A DNA stretch of 64,000 bases from Planctomycetota bacterium (GCA_038060895.1 JBBTCT010000022.1:229301-293300); one strand, 5' to 3'; numbered from the stretch's first letter, positions 2,370 to 59,332 are shown. Notes: generated from the letters alone by a model not told the origin. Made by a program: numbers and translations.

Positions 2370-2374
2370 CGTTT

Positions 2375-2749: not shown

Positions 2750-2992
2750 GGAACCTCCTTGATCCGTGTGAGTTCAGAATTCCAATCGTGTGACATTGAT
2801 ACGTCCCGATCGAAAAACTCCTGGAGGAATTCCCAGGAATTCGGACAAGGTTCCACCGCGCCTGCCACCTCCTAGAACTCCTCAATGTGATTCCCCGTCC
2901 TCTTCCGCTTCACCCGGTCGAACTCCTTCACCGTCTTCGGGGATGAGGTCGAGGAACGCTTCCGATGCCACGACCTCGCGAGGCCGGGAGGA

Positions 2993-3811: not shown

Positions 3812-3815
3812 ATCC

Positions 3816-4094
3816 ATGTCAACGCTTCCCGACCACGGCGACTTCTTCGTCAAAACCACGCTCAACGAAGACCTCAAGGCGATTCGCCAGGCCACCGAGA
3901 TGGCGAAGCAGAACCCCTCGAAGCCGGGGCACTACTGGCTGCGGGCGGTGATCAAGGGGGACGGGCCGGAAGGGAAGTTCGAGGTGATCAAGATGTATCA
4001 CGTGGACCTGAACGCGGGGATCGTGGAGATCACGGAGACGATGGAAGGCGAAGAGCGGGCGCGGCGGACGCGCAAGCTGGACGATCTGGGGTAG
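3816..4094 (+). CDS. hypothetical protein
   Basis: 92-aa ORF beginning 5 nt after the methyltransferase stop. Normal amino-acid composition (Lys/Glu-rich). No motif recognised. Confidence 0.55.
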   Translation: MSTLPDHGDFFVKTTLNEDLKAIRQATEMAKQNPSKPGHYWLRAVIKGDGPEGKFEVIKMYHVDLNAGIVEITETMEGEERARRTRKLDDLG

Positions 4095-4120
4095 GCTCGT
4101 TTGCGGCGAGGGTCGAAACG

Positions 4121-4189
4121 ATGGGCTATGACGAAAAGCTGGCCGGCCGGATTGCCGGGAAGCTCGACGGGAAGAAGCCTCGGAAGTGA
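4121..4189 (+). pseudogene. possible TfoX-N-like gene stub (22 codons)
   Basis: The stub reads 'MGYDEKLAGRIAGKLDGKKPRK*'. It resembles the first ~15 residues of TfoX/Sxy N-domain proteins (MAYDEELAERIR..) and then stops. Confidence 0.25.
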
Positions 4190-4242
4190 GCGGCCCGCGG
4201 AACCGATCAGGCTTTCGCCGCACGAGCCGCTAACATGAGGGC

Positions 4243-5816: not shown

Positions 5817-6965
5817 ATGGATCATAATGACATGAAACGATATGAGACGGACTTCGACGCCGCCCTGGCGTTCCTCCAGGTCAGCCGCTCCACCCTGAAC
5901 CGCTGGGTCCACGACGGCAAACTCCCCGCCCGAAAGGTCGGCGGCCAGTGGCGCTTCTCCGAAGAAGACCTCACCAGACTCCGCGACGGATCCGGGGAGC
6001 CCGCCCCGCTCGTCCGCGCTCGAGAAGAGCTGAAGACTTTCCTCGAATCCTCACGGGCCAACCGAAAGGGACCGAAAAACATGAACGCCATCGACACGAA
6101 ATCGCAGCCGCTCGCCGAAGCCCTGGTCTGGGAAGCGCACGACCGCAAGGCCTCCGAGCTGCACCTCCAGCCGAGGAAGGACGGCGTCCACATCTCCGTG
6201 GGCAAAGAAGCGCGGCTCGAGACGATCCGCGTCATTCCGGCGGACCTCGCGCGCGAACTCGAGCAGGCATGGGAAGAAATCGGGCTGCCGTTCGGCGACT
6301 CGGGCATCCGCCGGATCTTCCTCAGTCGCGCCGGGGACCAGGCCGTGAACGAAGTCTCCGTGCTACTCCAGGCCATCGACACCCTCCAGGGGCGCCGCGT
6401 CACGCTACGCTTCATGGGCGGCGGCCGCATCGCCGACCTCGATACCGTCGCGCCGAAAGCCGACGACCGCGCCGTCTTCGAGCGCTGGCTCAAGCGCCCC
6501 AACGGGATCATTCTCTTCTCGGGCCCGACCGGCTCCGGCAAGACGACGACGCTCCTCTCCTGCCTTCAGCATCTCGCGAAGGACGCCGGGCTGGCCGTCT
6601 TCAGCCTCGAGTACCCCGCTTATGTCCGCGTCGATGGCGTCGACCAGGTTGAGGTTCCGAGCGAAGACGGCCCGGTCGTCAAGGCCGCGCTCGAGCGCAT
6701 CATGAGGATGTATCCCAACGCGATCGGAATCTGCGTCGAGACCGAAGAAGCCGCCGCGGCCGCGCTGAACATGGCGATCACGGGGCATCTCGTGCTGATG
6801 CAGGTGCATGCAGAAGAGCACGAGGCGGCGGTGAAGCGCCTCGAGCAGCTCGCAGGCAGGCCGGTCGCGCCGTCCGTGATCGGGGTGATCTCGCAGCGGC
6901 TCAAGCGCGGCGACGCGGGCGGGAAGGTGGCTGAGTACCGCTTCTGGGAGCCTGGCGGGAGATAG
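5817..6965 (+). CDS. excisionase/MerR-type HTH fused to a GspE/PilB-like secretion ATPase core
   Basis: HTH is 'FLQVSRSTLNRWVHDGKLPARKVGGQWRFSEEDL'. Walker A is 'GPTGSGKTTT'. His-box-like motif is 'ITGHLVLMQVHA'. An alternative start is ATG 5832. Confidence 0.85.
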   Translation: MDHNDMKRYETDFDAALAFLQVSRSTLNRWVHDGKLPARKVGGQWRFSEEDLTRLRDGSGEPAPLVRAREELKTFLESSRANRKGPKNMNAIDTKSQPLAEALVWEAHDRKASELHLQPRKDGVHISVGKEARLETIRVIPADLARELEQAWEEIGLPFGDSGIRRIFLSRAGDQAVNEVSVLLQAIDTLQGRRVTLRFMGGGRIADLDTVAPKADDRAVFERWLKRPNGIILFSGPTGSGKTTTLLSCLQHLAKDAGLAVFSLEYPAYVRVDGVDQVEVPSEDGPVVKAALERIMRMYPNAIGICVETEEAAAAALNMAITGHLVLMQVHAEEHEAAVKRLEQLAGRPVAPSVIGVISQRLKRGDAGGKVAEYRFWEPGGR

Positions 6966-6987
6966 GCTCCCGCGCGACGGCGGCCCG

Positions 6988-8313
6988 TTGCGTAAGATGC
7001 CGGGGATGCCTCTGCTTCGCCGCCCGGGCTGGATCTGCGCCGCCGTCGCGCTCGCTTGCCTTGCCGGATGCGGGCAGAAAAAGCCGGCCGCATCCCGAAC
7101 TTCTTCGCCGGCGCCTCAGGAAATCACCGAACTCGACGCGGGGGAGCTCTTCACGAAGCTTCTTCCCGAAGGACTCCAGGCGCGCGTCACCCGCCGCGAG
7201 TACGCAGGCTACCGCGAGGGAGGCGTCTTCGTCATCGACGGCGACTACCAGTTCTTCCTCACCGTCATCAACAGCACGGCCGCGCCGGCGCGTGCGACGT
7301 GCCCGAAGTACCTGCTCGGCAAGGGCGAGGGGTGGAGGAACCCCAATCCGGGCGAAGGGCGGGAGCCGGAGTTCCTCTATTTCATGGTCGTCCGCGACCG
7401 GGAACTGCGGATCCCCGCGGGACAGGAGACGCGCGTTGAGCTCCGTGAAGCGCATTACCTGGGCAACGTAAACCGACCGCCCTATTTCGGGCCGGGGACG
7501 GAGCCGGAGCTGCGGATCTCGGTGCCGGCTGCGGATTCGCAGTATGTCAGAGCCGCTGAAGCGCTCGAAGCCCTGAAACCGTCGCTGGCGCCCTGGTTCC
7601 CGGGCCTCGCTTTCAGCCTCATTTCCGACGCGTCCCCCGACGAGATCCAGCGCAAGCGAATCCTGGCGTGGGAGTGGGTCGGGCTGAAGAGGCTTCGCGA
7701 GGCGCTGGAAGGGGCCGGTGTCCGGCCGCGGCAGGCATCGTCCTTCGAGGAGGCCGCGAAAAAGCGCGAGGGCATTCTCGGGAAGCTGCGCGCGGCCGTT
7801 GACGCCGCCGAGGCGATCCGCGCGGTGGACGAGCGATCGTGCGCCGGCGACGTCGAGGTCGCCGTCGCGGTCGCAGCTTTCCTCAAGCCGGAAGCCGACC
7901 GGACGGAGAAGTCACCGCTTCCCCTGGTCCTGGGCCGCCTCAAGGTCCGCGACCCCCGCATTCTCGACCGGCTCTTCGAATTCGCCCTGCGCGACGGCCA
8001 CGAATTCAGCCGCGTGCAGGCGGCCATGGAGGGAGCGAAGCTCGGCGACCCCCGGTGCATTCCGCTGCTCGTGCAGTACAGCCGGAACCCGGCCATGGCC
8101 GATGGCGACGTGGCGAAACTGGCCCAGGAATGCACCGGCACGCTGGTCGAGTTGTGGGAAGCGCAGGGAAAGTTCGCGCGGGGAGGGAAATGGAAAGAAG
8201 CCATCGACCGCTTCGGCGGCCTGGATGCCCCCGATCTGGCGGCCGTCCCGCAGGGGCAGCTCGCCGAGCTCAGGACCTTCCTCGAGTCCGGAAAAAACCT
8301 CCGCAGGAAATAG
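6988..8313 (+). CDS. lipoprotein, helical-repeat (HEAT-like) C-terminal half
   Basis: Lipobox 'LACLAGCGQ'. Helical repeats near 'PLLVQYSRNPAMADGDVAKLA'. The start is probably ATG 7006 (see the leaderless finding). Confidence 0.7.
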   Translation: MRKMPGMPLLRRPGWICAAVALACLAGCGQKKPAASRTSSPAPQEITELDAGELFTKLLPEGLQARVTRREYAGYREGGVFVIDGDYQFFLTVINSTAAPARATCPKYLLGKGEGWRNPNPGEGREPEFLYFMVVRDRELRIPAGQETRVELREAHYLGNVNRPPYFGPGTEPELRISVPAADSQYVRAAEALEALKPSLAPWFPGLAFSLISDASPDEIQRKRILAWEWVGLKRLREALEGAGVRPRQASSFEEAAKKREGILGKLRAAVDAAEAIRAVDERSCAGDVEVAVAVAAFLKPEADRTEKSPLPLVLGRLKVRDPRILDRLFEFALRDGHEFSRVQAAMEGAKLGDPRCIPLLVQYSRNPAMADGDVAKLAQECTGTLVELWEAQGKFARGGKWKEAIDRFGGLDAPDLAAVPQGQLAELRTFLESGKNLRRK

Positions 8314-16813: not shown

Positions 16814-16865
16814 TTTAGCCTCCGCCAGCTTTCGCCAGCCTCGGCCAGCCTTCGCCAGCCTCACC
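16814..16865. repeat. tandem 10-mer repeat, about 4.5 copies (TCCGCCAGCT TTCGCCAGCC TCGGCCAGCC TTCGCCAGCC), single arm
   Basis: Read directly. It belongs to the same family as the right arm at 32497-32550, including the leading 'CTTTAGCC'. Confidence 0.85.
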
Positions 16866-26668: not shown

Positions 26669-27553
26669 ATGCCGACGATCCGAGACCTGAGCCAGGGCGG
26701 CGTCCAGCCTCACGCCTCGACGCACATGTCGGGAGGTTCCGACGCGATCAAGCTCGACGAGCTCGCCGCGCCTACGGACGTCACGACGCTGAATGTCTCC
26801 ACTTCGGCTCACGGGCTGACGCCGAAGCTCCCGAACGATGCGACCAAATACCTCGACGGGACTGGCGCGTTCAGCGTCCCTGCGGGAAGCGGCGGCTCCG
26901 GCTCGTACCTCGGGACCACCGTGAAGACTTCCGGCACGACGTTCACGACCGGAGCCTCCACCAACACGATCCGTGTACGCCTTCAGGCCGGCGGCGGTGG
27001 AGGCGGCGGCGCTGCGTCGAATCTATTCAGCCCCGCCGGCGGCGGTGGCGCGGGCGGATACGCGGAAAAGACATTCGCCGTGAGCCCCTCGACCGCCTAC
27101 ACCTGCGCGATCGGCGCCGCAGGAGCCGGGGGCTCGGCAGGAAACAACAACGGCTCGGCCGGAGGGAACTCCACTTTCGCAGTCGGCGGAACGACCGTCA
27201 CAGCTTTCGGCGGCAATGGCGGAATCGGAACTGCCGGCGGAAGCGGCTCATCCGCGATCTTCGTTCTGGGGGGCGCTGCCGCATCCGTCTCCACGAGCGC
27301 CGACCTGAACGCAAGCGGCTCGCCGGGAGGGTTCGGGACAGGAAGTGGCGGCATTGGTGGTAGCGGCGCCTCGGGAGCCGGAGGTTCGTGCCTCTTCGGC
27401 GCCGGCGGAAACAGCCTCAATACCCAGAGCGGCGGCGCCGCGGGCGTCGGTTACGGCGCGGGCGGAAGCGGCGGCTGTTCGCTTTCCAGCGGCGGAAACG
27501 TTGCCGGCGGCGCAGGACTCGCCGGGGTGATCGTCGTCGAGGAGTTCTCGTAG
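26669..27553 (+). CDS. cassette protein D: phage-tail-fibre-like N-terminus + glycine-rich domain
   Basis: 'HASTHMSGGSDAIKLDELA...STSAHGLTPKLPNDATKYLDGTGAFS' is followed by a 'GGGGGGGAAS...GGGGAGGYAEK...GGNGGIG' glycine-rich domain. Confidence 0.8.
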   Translation: MPTIRDLSQGGVQPHASTHMSGGSDAIKLDELAAPTDVTTLNVSTSAHGLTPKLPNDATKYLDGTGAFSVPAGSGGSGSYLGTTVKTSGTTFTTGASTNTIRVRLQAGGGGGGGAASNLFSPAGGGGAGGYAEKTFAVSPSTAYTCAIGAAGAGGSAGNNNGSAGGNSTFAVGGTTVTAFGGNGGIGTAGGSGSSAIFVLGGAAASVSTSADLNASGSPGGFGTGSGGIGGSGASGAGGSCLFGAGGNSLNTQSGGAAGVGYGAGGSGGCSLSSGGNVAGGAGLAGVIVVEEFS

Positions 27554-27574: not shown

Positions 27575-28015
27575 GTGAGCGGAAACGGCTGTTCCTTCTG
27601 GGCCCAGAACGTCTCCCCGGAGACGAGCTGGCCGATTTCCTCCGAAGCGCCGGCGGGGATGGACGGAATGTCCTGGTCGAGCGAGTGCGTCTGGGACGCG
27701 ATGTCCTTCCCGCAGGGAGTCCTGCAGGTCTCCGCGCCCGTCGAGATCCGGAACCCAAACAACACCGTGATCTTCTCCATCGTGATCATCGGCCAGAGCA
27801 GCGGGTCTCCTCAGCTCGCCATCGTATTCTCCGGCGCCAATTGTCCGGAGGGTCCCTACACCACGCTGAGCGGGCCGACCAACATCACGACCTTGGGCCT
27901 GCAGTTCCTAGGCGCCGTGACCGGAATCAGGTTCCCCTACGTCCGGGCAGAAGTCATGTCGTCGAACGGGAGTGCGGTGGCGGGGAGCGGGTGCTTTTGT
28001 GTCTCGGAAGCCTAA
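27575..28015 (+). CDS. cassette protein E: 146-aa beta-rich, Cys-containing protein
   Basis: GTG start with SD 'GAGGAG' 9 nt upstream. 'VIFSIVIIGQSSGSPQLAIVFSG...IRFPYVRAEV' is the same style as A and B. Confidence 0.65.
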   Translation: MSGNGCSFWAQNVSPETSWPISSEAPAGMDGMSWSSECVWDAMSFPQGVLQVSAPVEIRNPNNTVIFSIVIIGQSSGSPQLAIVFSGANCPEGPYTTLSGPTNITTLGLQFLGAVTGIRFPYVRAEVMSSNGSAVAGSGCFCVSEA

Positions 28016-28173
28016 AGCCAGCGTTCGCTCGACAAACCAACCGTCCAAAGCGCCATCGGTGTAGCACATAACGAGAAGAGGTTTCGCGCGACTGTCTCTC
28101 ATCAAAGTCAAGTCAGAGCTCTCCAGCGCCTGACGGGTCTTCGAGTCGATTTTCCCTAGAGAAGGAGGTACCG

Positions 28174-28656
28174 ATGCCAGATCCAGAGATTGTGTCAATT
28201 GACGAAATCTTGCGTGCTAATGAGCTAAGGGATCCGCTGACCGGGGTCAGAACCGGCGGCACCGTGCTACACCCTGGCACTGGCGTGAAACTTCGGAAAG
28301 ATCGGCCTTCAGGATCCATTGGAATCAACTTGGACACAGGTCAATTGGAGATGCATGACTGGGGGCCGACCGTTGCTGGGCCCAGTACTGATTTCTCAAA
28401 GTTACCTGAACGAATCCGACTCTTTGGGGGAGAAACTGGCGACGGGCCCAGGGTGGGTCGTGACCCAAAGGAGTCTGAGGACCGTGGCGTGGAGATGCTG
28501 CTTCCGGAAGGCGTGAGAAAATTCGTCGCAGGAGATGCGCTGAAGGCAGGTATTGTCTCCATTTCCTTCGAGTTCGGAGGACCTTGGGGCCTTACCGTCA
28601 CGTTTGGAAGGCCGCCTGAGCCGGCTGGGGTCAGACGGAAGGACCTGGAGAAGTGA
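28174..28656 (+). CDS. hypothetical protein (low-GC island)
   Basis: Strong SD (GAAGGAGG, 5 nt before the ATG). 160 aa. No motif recognised. Confidence 0.6.
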   Translation: MPDPEIVSIDEILRANELRDPLTGVRTGGTVLHPGTGVKLRKDRPSGSIGINLDTGQLEMHDWGPTVAGPSTDFSKLPERIRLFGGETGDGPRVGRDPKESEDRGVEMLLPEGVRKFVAGDALKAGIVSISFEFGGPWGLTVTFGRPPEPAGVRRKDLEK

Positions 28657-28760
28657 CGCAATGCGAAACACGATCCATTTCTCGAAGTCGAGGACTGTCT
28701 GGGATGGGATGACTTCCCAGGAGCTAACCGCGCCTCCGTCGAAATCTCAGGAGCACGTCA

Positions 28761-29909
28761 ATGCGAACAGAAGCTTCTAGCGAACTGACTCATTCGTCAA
28801 GGTGGTGTCATCCAGTTACATTTGCACTTGCCTTGTTTCTTGGATGCGCCGCGGGTCAGGGCACCAACGAATCGAAGCCAGAAGAACCCAGGATTCACAA
28901 TTCGGTGGAATTGAGGGACTCGCAAGGGAGGATCCGGCTCTCGATCTGTCTGGATCAAGATGAGTGTCCTCAAATCATGCTATTTGATCCCGCCGGACAC
29001 CCTCGCTCGCGAATTGGACTAAGTTCGGAATTCGAACCCGTAATTCGTATGACGGGTTCGAACGGCGAGGATGCGGTTTCGCTTGGTTTGCGCGAGGATT
29101 CCCCCCAACTCCGGCTGGAGTGTGGCGAGGGACGAAGTGGTATTCGGATCCAGGCTGAAGCAACGCGAGGACCGGAGTTGACGTTGTCGGATGGCGATGG
29201 TTTGGAGCGCGCCCGACTGGCAATTGATCGTGGCGCCCCACAACTTTCGATGTTGGACCCTGGACTCAAGCCTCGCCTGTACCTTGGAACCGAGGTCTCG
29301 ACACCGGATAATTACGGACTCCGCGTCACCTCAGACGACGGCCTTTCCCGCGCGGAGGTTGGCACGACAAAAAACTCGCCGGCGTTCATCCTCGTTTCTG
29401 GAGGCGCTGGCGAATGGTCAGCGCTTGCAATGAGCCGTGGCGGGCACCCGCTGCTAAGCTTTGTCGATTCGACCGACATCGAACGAATTCGAGTCAGCTT
29501 GACGCCTCAACAGGAGTCCGAAGTAGCGCTTTGTAGCGCCGAAGGTCAGATTTCCGTTCTGGCAAGATGTCCGAAGTCGGGTTTCGGGTTGGTCAACTTG
29601 TCCGATGGCGATTCACCGACAGCCGTGTTTCTGGGGAAAGGTTCGTCCGGTGATGTCTTGGCCGGGATCGTTGATGCGGCGGGGTGTAGACGAGCGAGCT
29701 TGTCGCTAACCCCGGAGGACCGAGCTTACGCCTCCGTACAGGATTCGACCGCCTCCTCAGCCTTTCTGACGAACGATGGCAAAGGACTTTGCAAACTCGA
29801 GCTGAATCGAAAGGGAAAGACCAGACTGCTCGCGGGTTTTGACAAGACTGATACAGCATCCTTCATGTCGCTTGATTCGGAGGAAATCGAAACTTGGCGA
29901 TCAAAGTAG
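28761..29909 (+). CDS. lipoprotein built from ~20-aa 'L.L.D..G..R..L' type repeats (low-GC island)
   Basis: Lipobox 'LALFLGCAAG'. Recurring units include 'VELRDSQGRIRLSI', 'IMLFDPAGHPRSRIGL', 'LTLSDGDGLERARLAI' and 'LRVTSDDGLSRAEVG'. Confidence 0.7.
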   Translation: MRTEASSELTHSSRWCHPVTFALALFLGCAAGQGTNESKPEEPRIHNSVELRDSQGRIRLSICLDQDECPQIMLFDPAGHPRSRIGLSSEFEPVIRMTGSNGEDAVSLGLREDSPQLRLECGEGRSGIRIQAEATRGPELTLSDGDGLERARLAIDRGAPQLSMLDPGLKPRLYLGTEVSTPDNYGLRVTSDDGLSRAEVGTTKNSPAFILVSGGAGEWSALAMSRGGHPLLSFVDSTDIERIRVSLTPQQESEVALCSAEGQISVLARCPKSGFGLVNLSDGDSPTAVFLGKGSSGDVLAGIVDAAGCRRASLSLTPEDRAYASVQDSTASSAFLTNDGKGLCKLELNRKGKTRLLAGFDKTDTASFMSLDSEEIETWRSK

Positions 29910-30203
29910 ACTGCGGGGCTGCCATTCTTCTACAGACAGGCTTCAGTAGATGCGGTCGGGCGTCTCGATGGGGTTGAGACGTCGGGTGTAGACGGTTTCG
30001 CGACGTTGTAGACGTCGTAGGGCGACTCTTCCGTTCGGACGGAGCCCAACACCTGGGCTTGCGGGACACCCCGAACCTCCGAACGCAAATCGCTTCGTCC
30101 ACATCCAATTTCCCCAGGAGTCTCATGCCCGCCTTGCTCCGCCTCCCCCGCCAATGCTAAAGTCGCCCTTCCGGGTAACCCAGGGCCCGGTTGAGGGCCT
30201 CTC

Positions 30204-30725
30204 ATGGACGCAACGAAACCGGAAGTCGCCGCTCCAGCACCGCCCGCGCCGCTGGCCGACCCGCGCGTGGACAAGCTCCTTGAAAAGATCGGGATCCTTG
30301 AGCAGCTTTTCGTGAAGCGCATCAAGGACGACCAGGCGCACGCGGCGGCGTACAACACGCTGTACCAGGACATGTCGAAGTACCGGGACGACGCGTTCCG
30401 GGGGGCGCAGAAGTCGCTTCTCAAGGGTCTAGTGCTCATTTACGACACGATGAAGCGGTCCATTTCGGGGATCGGGGACGGGACGGTGCGCGAGATGGTG
30501 AACCTGCACGTCGAGGAACTGCTCGAGCTGCTTCATCGCCACGACGTCGAGCGGATGCCGGACACGCTGGGAAAATTCGACCGGAACGTGCAGCAGGCGC
30601 TGGGGACGGAGCCGGCGGCGACGGCGGAAGAAGATCAGACTGTTGCGCGAGTGGTGCGTGACGGGTTCAAATGGGGGACTCAGGTGTTGAGGCCGCAGGA
30701 AGTAGTGATTAAGGTAAAAAAGTAG
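30204..30725 (+). CDS. GrpE-like nucleotide-exchange factor
   Basis: The C-terminal 'LGKFDRNVQQALGTEPA...DQTVARVVRDGFKWGTQVLRPQEVVIKV' matches the GrpE pattern G.FDP..H.A....V..V...GY....vlRpA.V.V. Confidence 0.7.
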   Translation: MDATKPEVAAPAPPAPLADPRVDKLLEKIGILEQLFVKRIKDDQAHAAAYNTLYQDMSKYRDDAFRGAQKSLLKGLVLIYDTMKRSISGIGDGTVREMVNLHVEELLELLHRHDVERMPDTLGKFDRNVQQALGTEPAATAEEDQTVARVVRDGFKWGTQVLRPQEVVIKVKK

Positions 30726-30757
30726 TAGGGAGCAGGGGGTAGTGGGTAGTTGGTAGG
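30721..30757. repeat. GGTAG-type oligomer repeat (contains GGTAGTGGGTAG)
   Basis: agtagtagggagcagggggtagtgggtagttggtagg, read directly. The 12-mer recurs reverse-complemented at 34670-34681, and an 8-mer recurs at 32549-32556. Confidence 0.7.
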
Positions 30758-30788
30758 AAAGGCAAAGACTCTTAACAGGAGACCGTCC

Positions 30789-32378
30789 ATGGCCGACCAG
30801 AAGACGCCGATGACGTGCGGGATTGACCTGGGCACGACGAACAGCGCCATCGCGTTCATCGACGAGCACGGCAAGGCGCAGGTGATCCAGAACACGGACA
30901 ACGAGCGGATCACGCCCTCGGTCGTGCTGTTCGAGGAGAAGGAAGTCATCGTCGGCAAGATCGCCAAGAACTCGGCGGTGGCAGCGCCGGACCGGGTAGT
31001 GCAGTTCGTGAAGCGGCACATCGGCGAAGAGGGCTGGGTGAAGACGTACTTCGGGACGGAGTACACGCCCGAGACGATCAGCGCGCTGATCCTGAAGCGC
31101 ATCGTGCAGGACGCCGAGAAGGTGAGCGGCGGCAAAGTTGGGAGCGTGGTGATCACGGTTCCGGCGTACTTCAACGAAGTCGAGCGCAAGGCGACGCAGG
31201 ACGCGGGGACGATCGCGGGCCTGAACGTCGTCTCCATCCTCAATGAGCCGACGGCCGCGGCGCTGGCTTACGGGCTGGACCGGCTGGGCGAGAAGAAGCG
31301 CGTCCTGGTCTACGACCTGGGCGGCGGGACGTTCGACGTGACGATCATCGAGATCGACGGCACGAAGATCGACGTGCTGGCGACGGACGGCGAGCGGCGG
31401 CTGGGCGGCATCGACTGGGACGACGAGATCATCAACATGGTCTCCGAGAAGTTCCAGGCGGAGCACGGGATCGACCCGCGCAACGACCTCGAAGCGTGCC
31501 AGGACCTGCGCAACAAGGCGGAAGACGCGAAGATCAGCCTGTCGAAGCTCGAAAAGGTGCGCATCCTCTGCCAGTGCCAGGGCAAGACGACCAAGGTCGA
31601 ACTGACGCGCGAAGATTTCGAGAAGATCACCAAGGGCCTGCTCGACCAGACCGAGACGTACCTCGGGGTCGTGCTCCAGAAGGCGAAGCTCGCCTGGAAG
31701 GACATCGGCACCGTCCTGCTCGTCGGCGGCATGACCCGCATGCCCGCCGTGCAGGGCATGATCCAGCGTGTCACGGGTCTTAAACCCGAAACCGGCATCA
31801 ACCCCGACGAATGCGTCGCGATGGGCGCCGCCTACTACAACGCCGTCCTCGCCCTCCAGGCCAAGCCGTCCGAGGAGCCCGAGCTGGCGCTTCAGGGCGA
31901 AGCGCTGAAGGAGTCGATCGACGAGGAAGTCATGATCCTGCTGCAGGGCGTCGAGGTCACGAACGTGAACTCGCACTCGCTGGGCATCGTGGGCATCCAC
32001 AAGAAGACCGGCAAGCTGGTCGCGTACAAGATGATCCCGAAGAACACGCCGATCCCGGCCGACATCACAAAGCCGTTCGGGACGGAGAAGGAAAACCAGG
32101 TCAGCGTGCAGATCAAGATCGTCGAGGGCGAAGGCGAGACCCCCGAGGATTGCACGGAGATCGGGATGTGCGAGATCAAGGACCTCCCGAAGGGCCACCC
32201 CGCGGGCTCGATCATCGACGTGACCTACTCGTACAGCGTCGACGGCCGACTGCAAGTCACAGGCAAGGACCGCCTGTCCGGCAAGGAGGCCAGGGTCGAG
32301 ATCGTCCGCGCGAGCGGTATGGATGACAAAGAGATCAAGGAGGCGAAGAAGGACGTGGTTGAGATGGAAGTAGGCTAA
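30789..32378 (+). CDS. Hsp70-family ATPase, short form (no long helical lid)
   Basis: 'GIDLGTTNSAIAF', 'VITVPAYFN', 'LVYDLGGGTFDVTIIE' and 'VLLVGGMTRMPAVQ'. The start at ATG 30789 has SD AGGAG 8 nt upstream. About 529 aa. Confidence 0.9.
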   Translation: MADQKTPMTCGIDLGTTNSAIAFIDEHGKAQVIQNTDNERITPSVVLFEEKEVIVGKIAKNSAVAAPDRVVQFVKRHIGEEGWVKTYFGTEYTPETISALILKRIVQDAEKVSGGKVGSVVITVPAYFNEVERKATQDAGTIAGLNVVSILNEPTAAALAYGLDRLGEKKRVLVYDLGGGTFDVTIIEIDGTKIDVLATDGERRLGGIDWDDEIINMVSEKFQAEHGIDPRNDLEACQDLRNKAEDAKISLSKLEKVRILCQCQGKTTKVELTREDFEKITKGLLDQTETYLGVVLQKAKLAWKDIGTVLLVGGMTRMPAVQGMIQRVTGLKPETGINPDECVAMGAAYYNAVLALQAKPSEEPELALQGEALKESIDEEVMILLQGVEVTNVNSHSLGIVGIHKKTGKLVAYKMIPKNTPIPADITKPFGTEKENQVSVQIKIVEGEGETPEDCTEIGMCEIKDLPKGHPAGSIIDVTYSYSVDGRLQVTGKDRLSGKEARVEIVRASGMDDKEIKEAKKDVVEMEVG

Positions 32379-32550
32379 GGACAGGCTGGCATAGGCTGGC
32401 GGAGGCTGCGGAGGCTGGCGGAGGCTTTGGCGCAAAGGGAGGCAACCCCCTATGAGTAAGCGCCGACGCAATCGCCAGCCCCGATTCAGCCGACGCCTTT
32501 AGCCTTCGCCAGCCTCCGCCAGCCTCTGCCAGCCTCCGCCAGCCTCTTCA
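32372..32550. repeat. large inverted repeat made of tandem 10-mers (left arm ~5x AGGCTGGCGG, right arm 5x AGCCTCCGCC), ~64-nt spacer
   Basis: Read directly. The right arm is in perfect 10-nt register at 32501-32550. The arms are reverse complements of each other. Confidence 0.9.
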
Positions 32551-32556
32551 CTACCC

Positions 32557-33771
32557 ATGCCTGAAAACCGCTTCCACGAACTTCTGGGCCTCCCAGAAGA
32601 GGTCTCCGACCCGGACTATTACCAGCTCCTGGGCGTGCCACGCTCCGAGAATGACGCCGCCGCAATCGAGGCGTGCTTCAAGGAGAAGATGACGCATGTC
32701 CAGCACATCGAGAACCCGCGCCACAAGGAGTTTCTCGAGTTTCTCAAGGGGGAGCTGAAGCGCGCCCGGTCGATCCTGACCGACGAAGAGCGGCGCGGCG
32801 AGTACGACCGCGAGCTGGCGGAGGAGCGCGGCGACGAGCTTCGGAAGGTGCTGTCGCACATGCTCGTGGACGGGACGCTGAGCTCGATCGCCGAGGTGTC
32901 GGTCTTCCGCGAGGGTCACAATCTCGGGCTGAGCGGCGAGTTCGTGAAGCAGGTCGTGGACGAGGAGTTGAAGAAGGCGGGGGCGCGCCGCGTCTCGGTC
33001 GCGACGGGGACCAACGGGCACCAGACGCAGGTCCTCATGAACCAGAAGGCGCAGGAAGTCGCGCGCCAGATGCAGGAAGCCCGCATGGCGGCGCGCATCG
33101 CCGACACGCGCGCGAAGATCGCGGAGACGCACCAGAAGAAGGCCGAGGAGCAGGTGCAGGTCGTGCTGCAGAAGGCCCGCGTGGCCGAGGTCCAGAAGAA
33201 GCAGGCCGTCGAACTGGCGCAGGAAACCCGCGAACGCGCGCGGCAGGCCGAGATCCACAAGATGCGCGCCGAACAGAAGGTCCAGGCCGTCACGCAGAAG
33301 GCCCGCGAAGCCGAGACGCTCGCGCGCAAGGCGATTACCCGTGAGCACCTCGCCGCCGCCCGCCACAAGATGTCCGAACAGGAACGCAAGCAGCTCGAAG
33401 CCGGCATGAAGGAGGCGGAGACCCGCTTCCAGGCCTACGTCGAAGCCTCCAACGAAGAACTTGAGTCGGTCCGTGAGAAAGGCATGGCAGGGCGGCGCCT
33501 CACGATGTGCTACGCCCTCCTCAGCATGTCGCTCGTCGCCGGCGCCGCGCTGCCTAAATACGTGCCGGGCGCCGCTTCCGCCATCACGAAACTGCTCGAA
33601 CCCTATGTCTCCAGGGTCAGCGGCATTCCGCACGCGGCCCTGCCGCTCATCGCCATCGCAATCCTGCTCCCGACGCTTCATTGGCTGGCAGGGACGCGGG
33701 CCACCGGGTTCTTCGCGCCGCTGCTGGTTATCCTCGCGCTGGCCGTCGCGGCGGGCGTGCTGCGGGGATAG
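32557..33771 (+). CDS. J-like-domain protein without HPD, long coiled coil, C-terminal TM helices
   Basis: 'DYYQLLGVPRSENDAAAIEACFKEKMTHVQHIENPRH...ILTDEERRGEYDREL' is a J-domain scaffold with HIE in place of HPD. A Gln/Lys/Ala/Glu coiled coil follows. C-terminal TM segments are 'LIAIAILLPTL' and 'FFAPLLVILALAVAAGVL'. Confidence 0.8.
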   Translation: MPENRFHELLGLPEEVSDPDYYQLLGVPRSENDAAAIEACFKEKMTHVQHIENPRHKEFLEFLKGELKRARSILTDEERRGEYDRELAEERGDELRKVLSHMLVDGTLSSIAEVSVFREGHNLGLSGEFVKQVVDEELKKAGARRVSVATGTNGHQTQVLMNQKAQEVARQMQEARMAARIADTRAKIAETHQKKAEEQVQVVLQKARVAEVQKKQAVELAQETRERARQAEIHKMRAEQKVQAVTQKAREAETLARKAITREHLAAARHKMSEQERKQLEAGMKEAETRFQAYVEASNEELESVREKGMAGRRLTMCYALLSMSLVAGAALPKYVPGAASAITKLLEPYVSRVSGIPHAALPLIAIAILLPTLHWLAGTRATGFFAPLLVILALAVAAGVLRG

Positions 33772-33857: not shown

Positions 33858-34267
33858 ATGAAGTTCCGCAACGCTCTCCCGCTCCTCGCCTCGTTTGCCC
33901 TTCTCGCTGGCTGCGCCTCGAACGGCGAGGGCACCGCCGACACTTCCGGCAAACCCGGCGCCTTCCACGTCCGGGGCGACCAGGTTGAAGCCTGCGAGTG
34001 CGACTCAGTCTGCCCGTGCATCTTCGAAAAAGATGTCACCCACGAACAGTGCCAGGGCTGGCTCGCCCTCGCGATCCGGGAAGGCAGCTACGAGGGGACG
34101 GACCTCGCGGGCGTCACCTGCGCGATCGCCCTGCTGAAGACCGAGAAAAACCTGGGCAAGTCGATGGGCAAGTTGCGGACAGCAACACGCTCAGCGACGG
34201 CCCGGTGAAGTGGGATTTCAAGGGTCGCAACGGCGGGTACGGCGGCTTCGAATTCAAGAGCAAGTAG
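33858..34267 (+). pseudogene. DUF1326-family lipoprotein gene remnant (frameshift plus probable internal deletion)
   Basis: 'MKFRNALPLLASFALLAGCAS' (lipobox) is followed by 'ACECDSVCPCIFE' (the DUF1326 CxCxxxCPC signature). The frame is lost near 34170. The tail 'VKWDFKGRNGGYGGFEFKSK*' continues in another frame. Confidence 0.6.
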
Positions 34268-34331
34268 CAGAGTCCCGGGAGCCCGGCGAAAACGCCGGGC
34301 TCCCTTTGTCTACGGACCACCCGGAGGTCCC

Positions 34332-34598
34332 ATGCCCCTCTACGACTCCGTCCTCCAGCTCATCGGCCGCACGCCGCTTGTCCGCCTCGCGCGCGTCGGC
34401 GCGGGATGCCCGGCGCGCGTCTGCGGCGTCGGAACAGGCGGCACACTGACCGGCGCCGGGCGCTTCCTCAAGGAGCGCAAGCCGGCGCTTCGCGTCGTCC
34501 TGGCCGACCCGGTGGGGTCGACGCTGTCCGGCGGGGCTTCGGGGACCTACTTGCAGGGGCAATCGGCGACCCAAGACCCGAATCCGCATCGTCCTTAA
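34332..34598 (+). pseudogene. cysteine synthase (CysK/CysM, PLP fold-type II) remnant with ~145-codon internal deletion and 3' truncation
   Basis: 'DSVLQLIGRTPLVRLARVG' corresponds to the CysK N-terminus. It is joined directly to 'GVGTGGTLTGAGRFLKERKPALRVVLADPVGS', which matches CysK at about residues 175-215. The PLP lysine region is absent. Confidence 0.75.
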
Positions 34599-34618
34599 CG
34601 AAGAGTCGCTAGAATCCC

Positions 34619-35677: not shown

Positions 35678-37527
35678 CTCGCGCTGCCGCTCCCGGAGTT
35701 CTCCTCCTGCTGGCCACCTTCGCCTCCGCCCAGACGACGACGGTCCGCGACGCGGACGGGTTCCGGCAGGCGGTGAGGACGGCGAAGCCGGGCGCGAAGA
35801 TCCTCCTTGCGGCAGGGGAGTACGGCGGAGGTTTTTATTTCGAGAACGTGAAGGGCGAATCCGGGAAGCCTGTGACCATCGCCGCCGCGGACCCCGCGCA
35901 CCCGCCCGAGTTCACCGGCGGCGCTTCCGCGATGCACTTCACGGACGCCTGCCACCTCGAGCTGCGCGACGTCACGGTGAAAGGCTCAACCGCCAACGGC
36001 CTCAACTTCGACGACGGCGGCACGTTCGACACGACGTCGCACCACCTAGTCCTCCGCGGGATCAGGGTCACCGACGTCGGCGCGAGAGGCAACGAGGACG
36101 GACTGAAGATGTCGGGCATCCAGGATTTCCGCGTCGAAGACTGCTCGTTCGAGCGCTGGGGCGCGAACGGATCGGGGATCGACATGGTCGGGTGCGTGCG
36201 GGGCGTGATCGAAAATTGCCGCTTCAGCCACCCGGGAGGCTCCAACGGCGTGCAGATGAAGGGGGCCAGCGCCTCCGTATCGGTCCGCAGGTGCCGCTTC
36301 GAGGACGCCGGCTCGCGCGCGATCAACATCGGCGGCAGCACCGGCCTCCCGTTCTTCCGGCCGCCGCTCAAGGAGCCGCCGTTTGCGGAAGCGCGGGACA
36401 TCACGGTCGAAGGAAACACGTTCACGGGGTCGGACTGCCCGGTGGCGTTCGTCGGCGTGGACGGCGCCGTGGTCCGCTACAACACGATCTACCGCCCGCG
36501 GCGCTGGGCGATGCGCATCCTGCAGGAGACGACGGCGGACGGATTCGTGCCGTGCCGCAACGGCGAGTTCAGCCGGAACATCGTAGTTTTCCGGAGCGAC
36601 GCGTGGTCGGAGGGCGGGGTCAATGCAGGCTCCGGGACGGAGCCGTCGAGCTTCAAGTTCGAGGGAAACGCCTGGTTCTGCCTCGACGCCCCGGCGCGGT
36701 CGAAACCCAAACTGCCGGCGGAAGAGATCAAGGGGTTGTACGGGACCGACCCGATGTTCGAGGATCCTGAGAAGGGTGACTTGCGCGTGAGGGCGGCGAG
36801 CCCCATCCGCGACGCGGGGGCTGAGGCGCTTCAGGACTCGCCGGTCGTCTGGCTCGACGATGCGAAAACGGTGAAGATGGAATTCCGCCGCATCAAGGCC
36901 GGGAAGTTCACGATGGGTGCGAAGGAAGGCGCGGACGAAAAGCGGCTGCCGCATTCGGTGACGCTGACGCGGGATTTCCTGATGCAGACCACAGAGGTGA
37001 CGCAGGCGCAGTTCGAGGCGCTGATGGGGTCGAATCCGTCGAAATCGAAAGGCAAGGACCTGCCCGTGGAGCACGTGACGTGGGATGAGTGCCAGGAATT
37101 CGTCGAGAAGCTGAACGTACGCCTCGCAGGATGGGTCGCAAGCCTTCCGACCGAGGCGGAGTGGGAATACGCCTGTGGCGCGGGGTCTGCCGGGAGATGG
37201 GGCAGCGGGAACGACGCGAAACAGCTCCTCGATTACGCCTGGCTCGAGCCGAACTCGGGCGGCAAGACGCACCCGGTCGCGCAGAAGAAGCCGAACGCCT
37301 GGGGACTCCACGACATGCACGGCAACGCGTGGGAGTGGTGCGCCGACTGGTACGGCCCCTTCCGCGGCGACGAAATCGACCCCAAAGGCCCCGAAACCGG
37401 CGTCGCACGCTGCCTGCGCGGCGGGAGCTGGACCAGCCTCGCTACCCACGCGCGGTCGGCCCACAGCCTGTGGTGCGCGCCGGACTACCGAATGGAAGAA
37501 GCGGGGTTCCGGGTGCTCCTCAAATAG
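35674..37527 (+). CDS. secreted right-handed beta-helix domain fused to FGE-sulfatase (SUMF1) domain
   Basis: The ATG overlaps the ppk2 stop (ATGA). Signal peptide 'LLLLATFASAQ'. The C-terminal domain has 'VTQAQFEALMG', 'VTWDECQEFVEKLN', 'LPTEAEWEYACGAG', 'PNAWGLHDMHGNAWEWCADWY', 'RGGSW' and 'GFRVLLK'. Confidence 0.85.
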   Translation: MTRAAAPGVLLLLATFASAQTTTVRDADGFRQAVRTAKPGAKILLAAGEYGGGFYFENVKGESGKPVTIAAADPAHPPEFTGGASAMHFTDACHLELRDVTVKGSTANGLNFDDGGTFDTTSHHLVLRGIRVTDVGARGNEDGLKMSGIQDFRVEDCSFERWGANGSGIDMVGCVRGVIENCRFSHPGGSNGVQMKGASASVSVRRCRFEDAGSRAINIGGSTGLPFFRPPLKEPPFAEARDITVEGNTFTGSDCPVAFVGVDGAVVRYNTIYRPRRWAMRILQETTADGFVPCRNGEFSRNIVVFRSDAWSEGGVNAGSGTEPSSFKFEGNAWFCLDAPARSKPKLPAEEIKGLYGTDPMFEDPEKGDLRVRAASPIRDAGAEALQDSPVVWLDDAKTVKMEFRRIKAGKFTMGAKEGADEKRLPHSVTLTRDFLMQTTEVTQAQFEALMGSNPSKSKGKDLPVEHVTWDECQEFVEKLNVRLAGWVASLPTEAEWEYACGAGSAGRWGSGNDAKQLLDYAWLEPNSGGKTHPVAQKKPNAWGLHDMHGNAWEWCADWYGPFRGDEIDPKGPETGVARCLRGGSWTSLATHARSAHSLWCAPDYRMEEAGFRVLLK

Positions 37528-56764: not shown

Positions 56765-59332
56765 CTATTTCGCAGCTTCCACCGACCGCACCAGCCTGAA
56801 CCCGATGTCGCTGTCCACTTCTCTCTCCGGATCCCCATCCACGAACGTCGTCCGAAACTCGACCCAGTCCATGTCGCGCGACCCGCCGCCCCGCACCCCG
56901 CGCAGCCTCACCGACTTGTCCTGCCAGTTCGAGCACCACTCCTTCACATTCCCCGCCAGGTCCATGATCCCGTACGGGCACTCGTCCGCGGGATTCGACC
57001 CGACGGGAAGCGCCCCGAGTTCCACCGTCGGTCGCGACCGCCCGCCGTTCGTCCAGATCCAGTCGAACGTCGGTCCCCACGGAAACGCACGCCCGTCCGC
57101 GCCGCGGGCGATCGCTTCGCGCTCCCGCGTCGTCGGAAGCCGCCACGGGAGCCCGTCCCGCTGCGCCCGCCACGCGCAATACTTCCGCGCGTCCCAGTAC
57201 GACACTTTCACCATCGGCAGACGCAGACCTCCGTCCGGGTAACCCGGCTCCGCCGGCATCAGCCGCCCGTCCCGCATCTCCCAGCCGTCCGGCGGCGCCC
57301 GCTTCCGCAATTCCTCCGGGTCCCCCGCTGCCGCAAGCGCCGCGAGATACTCCGCGTACTCCGCACGCGTAACCTCGTACTTCCCGGCCACCAGGTCCCC
57401 CATCTCGCGAACCCGCCGCCTCTCGTCCGGACCCACGACGAATTTTCCGGCAGGCACGTGCACGAAGTCCGCACCGATCTCCGCTTCCGTCAGCAGCCGT
57501 ACCGTCGCGGCCACCTGCGGATACTTGCGCGTGATCGCGAACGGGAAGCGCGTGTCCCGGCGGCCCGGGAGCCGGAGGATCGCCAGGTACGAACCCGCCG
57601 GCAGCTTTTCCGGCGGCGCTTTCATCGGGCGCAGCACGAGTCGTGGATCCTCTCCCTGCTCGTACCGGAAGTACTCAACGGCAGCGCCCGGCGGGTCCGA
57701 GGTGATCACCACCGAGCCGCTCGCGCGGTCGCACTCTTCCGACCTCGGCTTGTCGTAGAGCTTCAGCAGACCTTTCGCTTCCGCCATCTTGAGTGCATCC
57801 CCGGCCCACTCCGCGCGCTTGAAAGCTCTCCAGTAATAGCCGGACAGGAATTCCCGGGGCGGCGCGTAGTCCGGGTCGGCCTGTACGGCGGACGAATAGA
57901 AGTGGACCACCTTTGTGCGTTCCTCGGAGAGTTCGCGCTCGAGCGTGGCGATCCGGGTTTCCATTCTCCAGAGCTCGTCGTGCTTGCCGGAGGGCGCGGT
58001 GGTGTCGAGCGAAGCGAACAGCGCGTCGCGTTCGACCTGAAGTGCCTTGAGCGAGGCGCCAATCTCCTTCACACGCGCGCGTGCCGCCTTTCCCTGCTCG
58101 GTGTTGCGCTCCGCGTTGTACCGCTTTGCTTCCCGACGCTTGAGCGCCAGCAGGTTCGAGTTCCGGTCGCTCTTCTCGAGATTCCAGAGCTGGCTGGCCA
58201 GCCACACGGCCTGCTCCGTGTCGCGTTCCGCCAGGACCTCCGCGTGTTTCGCTTCGACGTCGCTCCGGTGGCGGGCGGCATCGACGGCGAGCTTCACGCC
58301 GAGTCCTGCGAGTGCGAGCACCAGGGCGGCTCCCGCCGTCGCGGCCGCGACATGACGGCGCACCCAGAGTTCCGCCTTGCGCGCCGGCGAAGGCGGGCGC
58401 GCGAGCACGCGGCCTCCGTCGAGATGTCTGCGGAGGTCGTCGGCAAAGGAAGCGGCATCCGGGTATCGGCGCGCAGGATCTTTTTCGAGGGCGCGCAGGG
58501 CGACGAGCTCGAGGTCGCGCGGGACGCCGGGATTCAGCGCGTTCGGGGGAAGCGGATCTTCATACGCGACCCGCCGGATCACGTCGGCCGCGTTATCCCC
58601 CTGGTGCGGGGCGCGGCCGGTGAGGATGTGGTACAGGATCGCGCCGAGCGCGTAGACGTCGGTGCGGACCGAAAGGAGCCCCGACTGCCCGAGCGCCTGC
58701 TCGGGCGCCATGTACCACGGCGTCCCCAGCGTCGTCCCGCTCTGCGTCAGCGCCGTCTCGGAATCGATCTTCCGCGCAAGGCCGAAGTCCGCGACCTTCG
58801 GCACGCCGGCAGGCGTCAGCAGCAGATTTCCCGGCTTCAAATCGCGGTGAATGATCCCCGTCCCGTGCGCGTAATGCACCGCCCGGCTCACCGTTTCCAG
58901 GATCTCCGCCCCCTTGCGAATCTCCACGTCGTTCGCGCTCAGCGCTTCCGCCAGCGTCCTCCCGCGGATCAGCTCCATCACCAGGATCATTCGCCCTTCT
59001 TCCCAGCCCACGTCGTAAATCGTCACGATGTTCGGGTGCGTCAGCTTCGCCGCCATCTCCGCTTCACGCCGGAACCGGATCCCCATCTCCGCGTCCCCGC
59101 GGCTCTCCTCGCGCAGCACCTTGACCGCGACCTCGCGCTGCAGCTTCTTGTCGAACGCCGCGTAAACCACCGCCGTGCCGCCGCGCCCGAGCTCCTCGCG
59201 CATCTCAAACCGCGAAGCCGCCAGCGGCGGCGCCATCTGCACCGTCGCCACTTCCTTCATGGCGCTTCGCATCGCATCGTCGAGGGATTCGGGTTTCATG
59301 GTCGAGGTCCGGGAAGCGGCGGGCATTTTCAC
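56765..59332 (-). CDS. Ser/Thr protein kinase - TM - coiled coil - FGE-sulfatase (SUMF1) domain fusion
   Basis: 'LGRGGTAVVYAA...VAVKV', 'HRDLKPGNLLL' and 'DFGLAR'. TM segment 'AATAGAALVLALAGLGV'. The C-terminal domain has 'VTRAEYAEYL', 'VSYWDARKYCAWR', 'LPTTREREAIARG', 'CPYGIMDLAGNVKEWC', 'RGGGS' and 'GFRLV'. Confidence 0.9.
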   Translation of the reverse strand: MKMPAASRTSTMKPESLDDAMRSAMKEVATVQMAPPLAASRFEMREELGRGGTAVVYAAFDKKLQREVAVKVLREESRGDAEMGIRFRREAEMAAKLTHPNIVTIYDVGWEEGRMILVMELIRGRTLAEALSANDVEIRKGAEILETVSRAVHYAHGTGIIHRDLKPGNLLLTPAGVPKVADFGLARKIDSETALTQSGTTLGTPWYMAPEQALGQSGLLSVRTDVYALGAILYHILTGRAPHQGDNAADVIRRVAYEDPLPPNALNPGVPRDLELVALRALEKDPARRYPDAASFADDLRRHLDGGRVLARPPSPARKAELWVRRHVAAATAGAALVLALAGLGVKLAVDAARHRSDVEAKHAEVLAERDTEQAVWLASQLWNLEKSDRNSNLLALKRREAKRYNAERNTEQGKAARARVKEIGASLKALQVERDALFASLDTTAPSGKHDELWRMETRIATLERELSEERTKVVHFYSSAVQADPDYAPPREFLSGYYWRAFKRAEWAGDALKMAEAKGLLKLYDKPRSEECDRASGSVVITSDPPGAAVEYFRYEQGEDPRLVLRPMKAPPEKLPAGSYLAILRLPGRRDTRFPFAITRKYPQVAATVRLLTEAEIGADFVHVPAGKFVVGPDERRRVREMGDLVAGKYEVTRAEYAEYLAALAAAGDPEELRKRAPPDGWEMRDGRLMPAEPGYPDGGLRLPMVKVSYWDARKYCAWRAQRDGLPWRLPTTREREAIARGADGRAFPWGPTFDWIWTNGGRSRPTVELGALPVGSNPADECPYGIMDLAGNVKEWCSNWQDKSVRLRGVRGGGSRDMDWVEFRTTFVDGDPEREVDSDIGFRLVRSVEAAK

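Follow-up and report, generated by a model that had tools for sequence, protein, structure and literature searches.

A GrpE-like protein, a lid-less Hsp70 and an HPD-less J-like membrane protein encoded side by side in Planctomycetota

The DNA considered here is a 64-kb stretch (hereafter the window) from a Planctomycetota metagenome-assembled genome (MAG) of 65% GC, which encodes, next to each other and in the same direction, a GrpE-like nucleotide exchange factor (NEF), an Hsp70 devoid of its helical lid and a J-like membrane protein devoid of the HPD motif. This triad varies the Hsp70/J/NEF theme and is part of a wide family, as yet uncharacterised, of the Planctomycetota–Verrucomicrobiota–Chlamydiota (PVC) group. 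Its interpretation as an autonomous, non-housekeeping Hsp70 system, recruited to the membrane by an HPD-independent J-like adaptor, is given here about an even chance of being correct. ATP hydrolysis by Hsp70 is treated as having a universal trigger, namely HPD and the contact that this motif makes with Arg167. Large J-protein surveys discard HPD-less sequences (PMC10410713), and an HPD-independent coupling between J fold and Hsp70, if true, would have been filtered out by design. In the present case, an HPD-less J fold has been kept under selection beside an Hsp70 without the matching arginine, with a rewritten linker and no lid, yet with intact catalytic and substrate cores and a GrpE of its own. 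If functional, such a pair would offer a natural system to study what the J fold does without HPD, how a lid-less Hsp70 holds its clients, and how paralogous Hsp70 systems are insulated from the housekeeping one. It also brings a concrete example for the uncharacterised bacterial “DnaK derivates” of recent reviews.

The three co-directional open reading frames (30204-30725, 30750/30789-32378 and 32557-33771) lie where an earlier note on this DNA had placed them, and their coding bias is strong. The GC content at third codon positions (0.80, 0.92 and 0.88 for genes 1-3), together with that at second positions (0.36-0.40), is the signature of real genes. The central gene (30789..32378, plus strand), annotated at NCBI as “Hsp70 family protein” (MEK7468819.1), encodes 529 residues from an ATG whose N-terminus, MADQKTPMTCGIDLG, agrees with the homologues; the alternative TTG start at 30750 adds 13 non-conserved residues. 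The product clearly belongs to the Hsp70 superfamily, with 436.6 bits on the Pfam HSP70 profile (PF00012), and its match stops at profile position 516 of 599. Alignment to E. coli DnaK places its C-terminus at about DnaK residue 520-525, within lid helix A, and what comes after the beta domain is a single short helix (513-525), so that the lid helices A-E of the alpha part of the substrate-binding domain (SBD) are not found. The lid-less Hsp70 of about 529 residues described in the earlier note is thus borne out, both by this alignment and by the end of the Pfam match. Sequence identity amounts to 38% with E. coli DnaK and 33% with HscC. On the NCBIfam DnaK equivalogs NF001413 and TIGR02350, it scores 452.9 against a cut-off of 648 and 439.7 against 822.55, respectively, and the HscA equivalog is likewise missed by a wide margin by the window proteins.

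Despite this truncation, the functional cores look preserved. The catalytic motifs GIDLGTTNS, K70, NEPT and DLGGGTFD are intact in the alignment, and the K55-E267 salt-bridge positions are conserved. The beta SBD (residues 394-510), followed by the short helix and by a hydrophobic/acidic tail ending in DVVEMEVG (31968..32375, plus strand), aligns with its DnaK counterpart and retains the pocket residues F426, V436 and I438; the phi-x-phi C-terminus is kept across the short-Hsp70 family described below. The AlphaFold2 (AF2) model has a mean confidence (pLDDT) of 91.8 and a pTM of 0.89. It superposes well on the ATP-docked structures of DnaK, BiP and Ssb (4b9q, 5nro, 7kzu and 5e84; TMq 0.83-0.86, rmsd about 3.3 Å) and poorly on the undocked ADP state 2kho (TMq 0.58). 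Since the model fits the ATP-docked and not the ADP state, the allosteric architecture is predicted to be intact and the protein to be able to take the ATP-docked state; this Hsp70 appears thus catalytically and allosterically plausible.

Residues that serve J-domain contact and allostery in DnaK have changed. There, the HPD aspartate pairs with Arg167, as known from the DnaK-J-domain complex 5NRO and from the suppressor genetics of DnaK R167 and DnaJ D35. Its equivalent in the window is Ser149 (codon 31233..31235, plus strand; NVVSILNEPT versus EVKRIINEPT in DnaK). Among 66 family members, this position is occupied by G (22), Q (18), S (16), A (6), R (3) and D (1), the arginine being lost in 63 of the 66. 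DnaK Lys155 is replaced by Gln in the window protein, and the linker residues L390, L391 and D393 are also changed. As deduced from the DnaK/HscC alignment, the region 31860..31967 (plus strand) encodes a family-specific insertion of two helices (residues 358-387) followed by the linker V-E-V-T-N-V (388-393), where DnaK has VLLLDV; the AF2 model shows helices 364-376 and 379-386 and a strand 389-393 at these places. The linker pattern phi-x-phi-x-N-V-x-x-H-S-L-G is conserved in the short-Hsp70 family, with an invariant His396, and the insertion in front of it varies in length. It is long and Pro-rich at two related loci, L009 (3-809) and L020 (890-3034), where a proline-rich low-complexity linker of more than 100 residues separates the nucleotide-binding domain (NBD) from the beta SBD at the window's insertion site. 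Two HscC-like indels are also present in the window Hsp70: the IIB loop is shortened by a deletion (at about DnaK 281-285), and the SBD loop L1,2 carries an insertion.

The third gene (32557-33771, plus strand) encodes a 404-residue protein, annotated as “hypothetical protein AAB074_15700” (MEK7468820.1). Its J-like domain (residues 1-92; 32557..32832, plus strand) stays close to, and just below, the 27.8-bit cut-off of the Pfam DnaJ family (PF00226), with 23.1 bits when the entire protein is scored and 27.6 bits when residues 1-98 are scored alone, and a close homologue (P0003) has a precomputed PF00226 match. The AF2 model is confident across residues 10-145 (pLDDT 84-95). Its best Foldseek matches in the PDB are J-domains (2ctq, 2lgw, 2ej7, 2dmx and 2och; rmsd 2.2-3.2 Å), with a TM-score of 0.80 and an rmsd of 2.2 Å over 68 columns for 2och. 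The J-domain scaffold recognised in the earlier note is therefore retrieved, as a four-helix J fold, in the predicted structure.

Residues H50-I51-E52 (32704-32712) align without any indel to H33-P34-D35 of DnaJ. An HPD motif displaced by an indel could be ruled out, the offset to DnaJ being constant from the slot through the end of helix III and no HP[DE] being found anywhere in residues 1-150; the earlier claim of an HPD-less protein withstands this check. The same holds for residues 1-150 of all 21 J-like orthologues (21/21), and neither HPD nor HPE fills the slot in any of the roughly 150-160 best profile relatives of the family. The HIE spelling is not conserved; the slot is free to vary, and reads HIE, HNE, RLD, QNE, RIE, KIE, QIE, NIH, AIQ or EIK among the orthologues. 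The constrained parts of the domain are helix I (PDYYQLL), parts of helix II and, foremost, helix III, where the block HKEFxEFLKGELKxAR, starting from H56-K57, is nearly invariant. With Arg167 replaced on the Hsp70 side and the HPD aspartate missing on the other, both halves of the canonical contact are gone. Given that the VLLLD linker is rewritten as well, the J-like domain probably binds without HPD-triggered hydrolysis.

The J-like domain is accompanied by a small alpha/beta domain (domain 2, residues ~95-147; 32839..32997, plus strand), delineated by profile matches and modelled with a pLDDT of 85-92, to which no Pfam family could be assigned at E<10. It had been overlooked in the earlier layout of the protein, which was right about the J-fold N-terminus and went from there directly to the stalk. 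This stalk (residues ~155-335; 33019..33561, plus strand) is a charged alpha-helical segment rich in A, E, Q, R and K, with AF2 helices at 155-260 and 274-335. Over about 180 residues, its composition is 66% A/E/Q/R/K and 20% hydrophobic, with almost no 3.5-residue (heptad) periodicity, and the Q/K/A/E coiled coil proposed earlier gives way to a charged helical stalk. The gene ends with a membrane anchor (33499..33771, plus strand), predicted from Kyte-Doolittle hydropathy as three hydrophobic helices (~315-335, 353-375 and 377-400) ahead of the stop; the corresponding AF2 helices span 337-351, 361-378 and 383-403. A C-terminal membrane anchor is predicted, as in the earlier note, which had two transmembrane (TM) helices rather than the three hydrophobic segments seen by both methods. 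Basic residues are found as GRR before TM1 and as T-R-A-T, K-R and R-K in the TM2-TM3 loop, positions which are predicted to favour an N-terminus-in topology, and the extracytoplasmic loops are short only. Full-length relatives are rare, with 21 clusters among 5.8 billion proteins, and all the named ones come from Planctomycetota MAGs. In their alignment, the N-terminal 147 residues are highly conserved, the helical region is variable in length, with indels of ~30-60 residues between orthologues, and the C-terminal helices are hydrophobic.

The first gene (30204..30725, plus strand; NCBI “nucleotide exchange factor GrpE”, MEK7468818.1) encodes 173 residues that score 63.4 bits on Pfam GrpE (PF01025), well above the cut-off of 25.8. 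The GrpE identity given in the earlier note is therefore correct, although the match covers nearly the whole domain (residues 38-169, profile positions 28-163 of 165) and not the beta-domain alone. Every NCBIfam GrpE equivalog is missed, with a best score of 37.3 bits against a cut-off of 176, all cut-offs being at least 137. A PDB sequence search with this protein gave a spurious tape-measure match only. The wide margins by which both the DnaK and the GrpE equivalog cut-offs are missed support the view that this is not the housekeeping set, in the sense of a non-canonical one.

The triad is maintained in related genomes, as was shown by tblastn of the three proteins against the fetched loci. 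The order GrpE-like, Hsp70, J-like is found in L001, L004, L012-L014 and L016-L018, in agreement with the triad proposed earlier; among these loci, L013, L014 and L016 come from Planctomycetota MAGs of separate studies. In all, more than 10 loci of Planctomycetota MAGs keep this gene order. A GrpE homologue lies 5' of the Hsp70 gene in 9 of the 10 orthologous loci. Identities in the loci with this order are 57-89% for the GrpE-like protein, 72-99% for Hsp70 and 39-87% for the J-like protein. The Hsp70 (69-99% identity) is thus more constrained than its J-like partner (39-87%), within which the N-terminal module is conserved and the stalk variable. Beyond the triad, conserved neighbours that could name a client were sought in the related loci and none was found. 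A bactofilin block does occur 3' of the triad, on the opposite strand, solely in the deeper-branching sub-clade L001 (9897-10367), L003 (9797-10833) and L018 (10732-11607); besides the bactofilin genes, of which there are one or two, it has a conserved open reading frame of 345-460 aa (381 aa in L001 and 344 aa in L003, as called), and neither the window nor its closer relatives possess the block. In L004, a kinase-FGE-sulfatase gene (2131-4983) stands directly 5' of the triad.

The Hsp70 and J-like genes are separated by a 178-nt spacer (32379..32556, plus strand) that can fold into a long and very stable hairpin. One arm, at 32384-32427, is built of the 10-nt repeat (GGCTGGCGGA)n, and its complement forms the other arm, at 32500-32544. 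The minimum free energy of the hairpin is -115.9 kcal/mol (z = -9.7), a stability reached by 0 of 200 shuffles, and 11 matches to the decamer are observed in the spacer for 0.43 expected. The same spacer forms hairpins of differing, unrelated sequence in L012, L004, L013, L014, L001 and L018, and is 6-24 nt long in L016 and L017. It is plausible that such a hairpin would keep the adaptor sub-stoichiometric to Hsp70 and GrpE. A one-armed array of GGCTGGCGGA is also present at 16816-16860 on the minus strand, and the decamer may be a genome-wide element resembling repetitive extragenic palindromic (REP) sequences. Searching the locus with Rfam gave sub-threshold microRNA and internal ribosome entry site matches only, which merely reflect this hairpin. 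A sigma-70 promoter scan of the locus returned no promoter (0), and the sites resembling terminators are intragenic and on the wrong strand.

A search with the Hsp70 retrieved a large set of “Hsp70 family proteins” of 510-550 residues and 44-60% identity, hosted by Planctomycetota, Verrucomicrobiota, Poribacteria and Ca. Uabimicrobium. The triad, non-canonical as judged from the equivalog thresholds, is not a solitary case and forms one branch of this broad short-Hsp70 family. In the neighbourhoods sampled, the short Hsp70s are usually encoded 3' of a grpE-like gene and often 5' of an HPD-less J-like protein with a variable C-terminus. At L007, with GrpE upstream, the Hsp70 gene is followed by a 509-aa HPD-less J-like TM protein and then by a TPR protein. 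L028, from Verrucomicrobiota, also has GrpE upstream, and its third gene (6576-8198) joins the two-part module, J-like plus domain 2, to an FGE-sulfatase domain. At L029, where no upstream partner was identified, the Hsp70 is followed by a J-like (HTN) protein with TPR and TM segments; L009 and L020, the loci whose Hsp70s have the long Pro-rich linker, show a J-like gene after the Hsp70, the upstream gene being not visible. HPD/HPE is missing from the partners in five independent architectures (the window family, L009/L020, L007, L028 and L029), and C-terminal TM anchors are also present in the J-like partners at L007 and L029. At L029 (1062-10994), the Hsp70 and J-like genes are found among phage integrase, primase-like and RecD-like helicase genes, and a mobile element may carry this member of the family.

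The J-like part is also widespread outside the triads. A HMMER profile search with the J-like family gave 103 representatives at E<=1e-10, a number that rises to 1605 at E<=1e-3; most of them match the N-terminal module only, over positions 1-145 or over the J-like part at ~1-90. Dozens of proteins with the 1-145 module have unrelated C-termini; fusions to FGE-sulfatase (7/84) and protein (Ser/Thr) kinase (3/84), as well as to WD40 and Laminin_G, were counted in the alignment A5 of P0146-P0261. The fused PVC proteins often have a single TM helix between the module and the output domain, which gives them a receptor-like appearance. Several J-like paralogues occur per genome in some cases (L018 with L022; L023 with L024), an arrangement that fits one Hsp70 serving several adaptors. 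More tentatively, and with appreciably less confidence than is placed in the reading of the triad itself, these data could reflect an orthogonal PVC Hsp70 network, in which a lid-less, Arg167-less Hsp70 with its own GrpE would be brought in by a “J-like + domain 2” module, portable and without HPD, that sits on many outputs, such as membrane stalks, FGE-sulfatase/lectin-type sensors, kinases, TPR and WD40 proteins.

According to the proposed mechanism, the system would work at the cytoplasmic face of the inner membrane. The J-like domain and domain 2 would form a recruitment module docking the lid-less Hsp70, which would be held near the membrane by the stalk (~14-28 nm if fully helical) and the three TM helices. 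Binding of the J-like domain would probably proceed without classical HPD-triggered hydrolysis, most likely through the invariant helix III, and this altered contact may insulate the pair from the housekeeping DnaK/DnaJ. The open, lid-less SBD could then bind and release a specific client fast, with the GrpE-like protein resetting the Hsp70; the presence of such a factor does imply real nucleotide cycling. The “dedicated membrane machine” of the earlier note is in this respect something we infer from the locus, and the interpretation given there is, as a whole, partly supported.

Several observations weigh against this proposal. The lineage represented by L003 and L019 has the Hsp70 and J-like genes and no GrpE gene. 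The gene following the Hsp70 is not J-like at L006 (secreted protein, with a kinase and GrpE upstream), at L027 (vWA/DUF58 protein, with an FHA protein and GrpE upstream) and on a JGI contig (two unknown genes, with nothing upstream). The distant J-like paralogues of L021-L025 are not adjacent to any Hsp70. Lastly, the Hsp70 of L029 (P0090) retains the equivalent of Arg167 while the slot of its partner reads HTN, so that the co-variation is not strict. A strict co-loss of Arg167 and HPD had to be discarded on these grounds: the partner of this protein, the one Arg-retaining short Hsp70 examined, being itself HPD-less, the co-variation is family-wide, not pairwise.

Among the known systems, the closest comparison is HscC. 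Three types of bacterial Hsp70 are distinguished in the review by Mayer, in which HscC (type length 550-580 aa) and DjlB/DjlC represent a specialised pair, probably with membrane-protein clients, that is GrpE-independent (PMC8215388). DjlB and DjlC both have HPE, and sequences without a full HPD were removed from the corresponding survey (PMC10410713). As in the window, a specialised Hsp70 is encoded beside its own J-type partner, DjlC combines an N-terminal J fold, a long middle part and a C-terminal TM anchor (PMC8215388), and E. coli HscC shares the IIB-loop deletion and the L1,2 insertion. HscC-DjlC may therefore be considered, by analogy, as a precedent for a specialised Hsp70 working with a C-terminally anchored J protein (PMC8215388). 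The HPD motif is already relaxed to HPE in DjlB and DjlC; DjlC nevertheless keeps His-Pro, whereas the slot is unconstrained in the window family, and the window partner has HIE where an HscC-type partner has HP(D/E). HscC (556 aa) keeps a shortened lid extending ~60 residues past the end of the window Hsp70, which stops in helix A at 529 aa, and retains Arg167 and a hydrophobic linker (VILTD), neither of which is found in the window Hsp70. It is thought to be independent of GrpE, in contrast with the co-inherited grpE-like gene, and is less similar to the window protein (33% identity) than DnaK is (38%). Membership of the HscC type was thus ruled out by the missing lid, the lack of an HP(D/E) partner and the linked grpE-like gene.

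With the canonical DnaK-DnaJ-GrpE set, the window shares the three functional roles, the NBD motifs, the beta-SBD pocket, the ATP-docked architecture and the GrpE domain. The lid, Arg167, Lys155 and the VLLLD linker of the canonical set are not found in the window Hsp70, the last three being replaced by Ser, Gln and VEVTN, and the window partner has none of the G/F region, zinc finger and client-binding domains of DnaJ. A J fold that has lost its HPD is also encountered in mitochondrial Pam16/Tim16 and in DNAJB13. Pam16 is an HPD-less J fold on a membrane machine, where it pairs with a true J protein, Pam18. Such an HPD-bearing partner was found neither in the locus nor elsewhere in the 64-kb window, and there is no sequence relation with Pam16 beyond the J fold. 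A shortened or missing lid is common to the eukaryotic Ssz1/HSPA14 and HSPA12 and to the Myxococcus “DnaK derivates”, a recognised class (PMC13580251). Zuotin, the partner of Ssz1, does have HPD and stimulates another Hsp70, unlike the window partner. Numerous “DnaK derivates” of bacteria, of unknown function, are described in a 2026 review as having lost all or part of the lid, and are speculated there to be DnaK co-chaperones (PMC13580251); no GrpE + J-like operon is described for them there, and the window family is restricted to the PVC group. In the literature, no description of a GrpE-like/lid-less Hsp70/HPD-less J-like operon was found.

Other explanations have to be weighed against recruitment by an HPD-independent adaptor. 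The membrane protein could itself be the substrate or target of the Hsp70, for its oligomerisation, insertion or turnover, with the J-like domain as a docking remnant, which seems rather doubtful. Dedicated clients have precedents in IscU for HscA and sigma-32 for DnaK; the gene pairing is tight and specific, no client-binding domain can be recognised besides the stalk and TM helices, and the tail-anchored topology is of the kind needing post-translational targeting. DnaK is moreover reported, in a figure legend of PMC8215388, to guide DjlC to the membrane. However, the J-like + domain 2 module also occurs on unrelated C-termini (FGE-sulfatase, kinase, WD40, TPR), a distribution for which a portable recruitment module is a better explanation than a single client, and most of the protein is stalk, of little sequence conservation and variable length. 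It has also been hypothesised for bacterial “DnaK derivates” (PMC13580251) that they are accessory to the housekeeping DnaK; the lid-less Hsp70 would then be a co-chaperone of Hsp110-like or NEF-like type, merely localised by the J-like protein. That the lid, Arg167 and the VLLLD linker have all been lost does parallel changes seen in Hsp110 (linker comparison in PMC13580251). This role appears unlikely all the same, because the co-inheritance of a dedicated GrpE-like gene argues that the Hsp70 itself cycles nucleotide, the catalytic residues have been retained along with the pocket of the beta substrate domain, and the model adopts the normal ATP-docked Hsp70 state.

A signalling or conflict (immune-type) module, in which a family of membrane receptors and sensors would have the J-like module as cytoplasmic output, with Hsp70 + GrpE as an NTP-driven switch, would recall the chaperone-based conflict systems of multicellular bacteria. 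Kaur et al. (2020, PMC7159879) describe HSP70+GrpE+DnaJ-FNIII themes only within GTPase-centred systems; like the window, these GAP1-N2 systems bring together in one neighbourhood an additional Hsp70, the GrpE that belongs to it and a protein with a fused J-domain (PMC7159879). Module fusions to FGE-sulfatase (as in L028), kinase, WD40 and Laminin_G point in the same direction, as do the integrase, primase and helicase genes beside L029 and the FHA and vWA/DUF58 genes beside L027. The likelihood of this explanation is nonetheless low. A Pfam scan of the flanks revealed no GTPase, MoxR, effector or sensor domain in the locus or in neighbouring window genes; PADLOC models gave only weak coiled-coil/low-complexity matches on the triad (LeoBC 19 bits); the window protein has short extracytoplasmic loops only; and the flanks are ordinary, with neighbours that differ between related loci. 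GAP1-N2 systems are moreover defined by their GTPase, with FNIII proteins, and belong to Actinobacteria/Firmicutes, and no GTPase/FNIII protein is encoded at the window locus. Assignment to GAP1-N2 or another defence system was accordingly rejected. It is, finally, highly improbable that the triad is the main or sole Hsp70 system of a divergent lineage, as might be imagined from the sequence search of the 64-kb window, which revealed no second dnaK/dnaJ. The DnaK and GrpE equivalog thresholds are failed by wide margins, the lid, an HPD partner and a class A/B DnaJ are all lacking, and the J-like orthologues form a very small family, of 21 clusters in 5.8 billion proteins. In the survey of PMC13580251, no DnaK-derived paralogues were reported in genomes that have no genuine DnaK.

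Some features around the triad deserve mention in their own right. The region just 3' of the J-like gene (33858-34600) contains apparent gene remnants, namely a 116-aa DUF1326 fragment covering profile positions 1-61 of 177 only, and an 88-aa fragment (34332-34598) similar to the N-terminus of PALP/cysteine synthase; both have also been called on an independent Logan contig (L008). On the other side, the stretch 28000-30000 has a GC content of 0.563, versus ~0.65 around it, and may be acquired DNA. It contains the gene 28761-29909, whose 382-aa product begins like a lipoprotein (LFLGC) and gives no Pfam match, and just 5' of it, 26669-27553 codes for a Gly_rich_2 protein. Further away in the window, a Ser/Thr kinase-FGE-sulfatase fusion and a beta-helix-FGE-sulfatase protein are encoded at 56765-59332 and 35680-37527, respectively.

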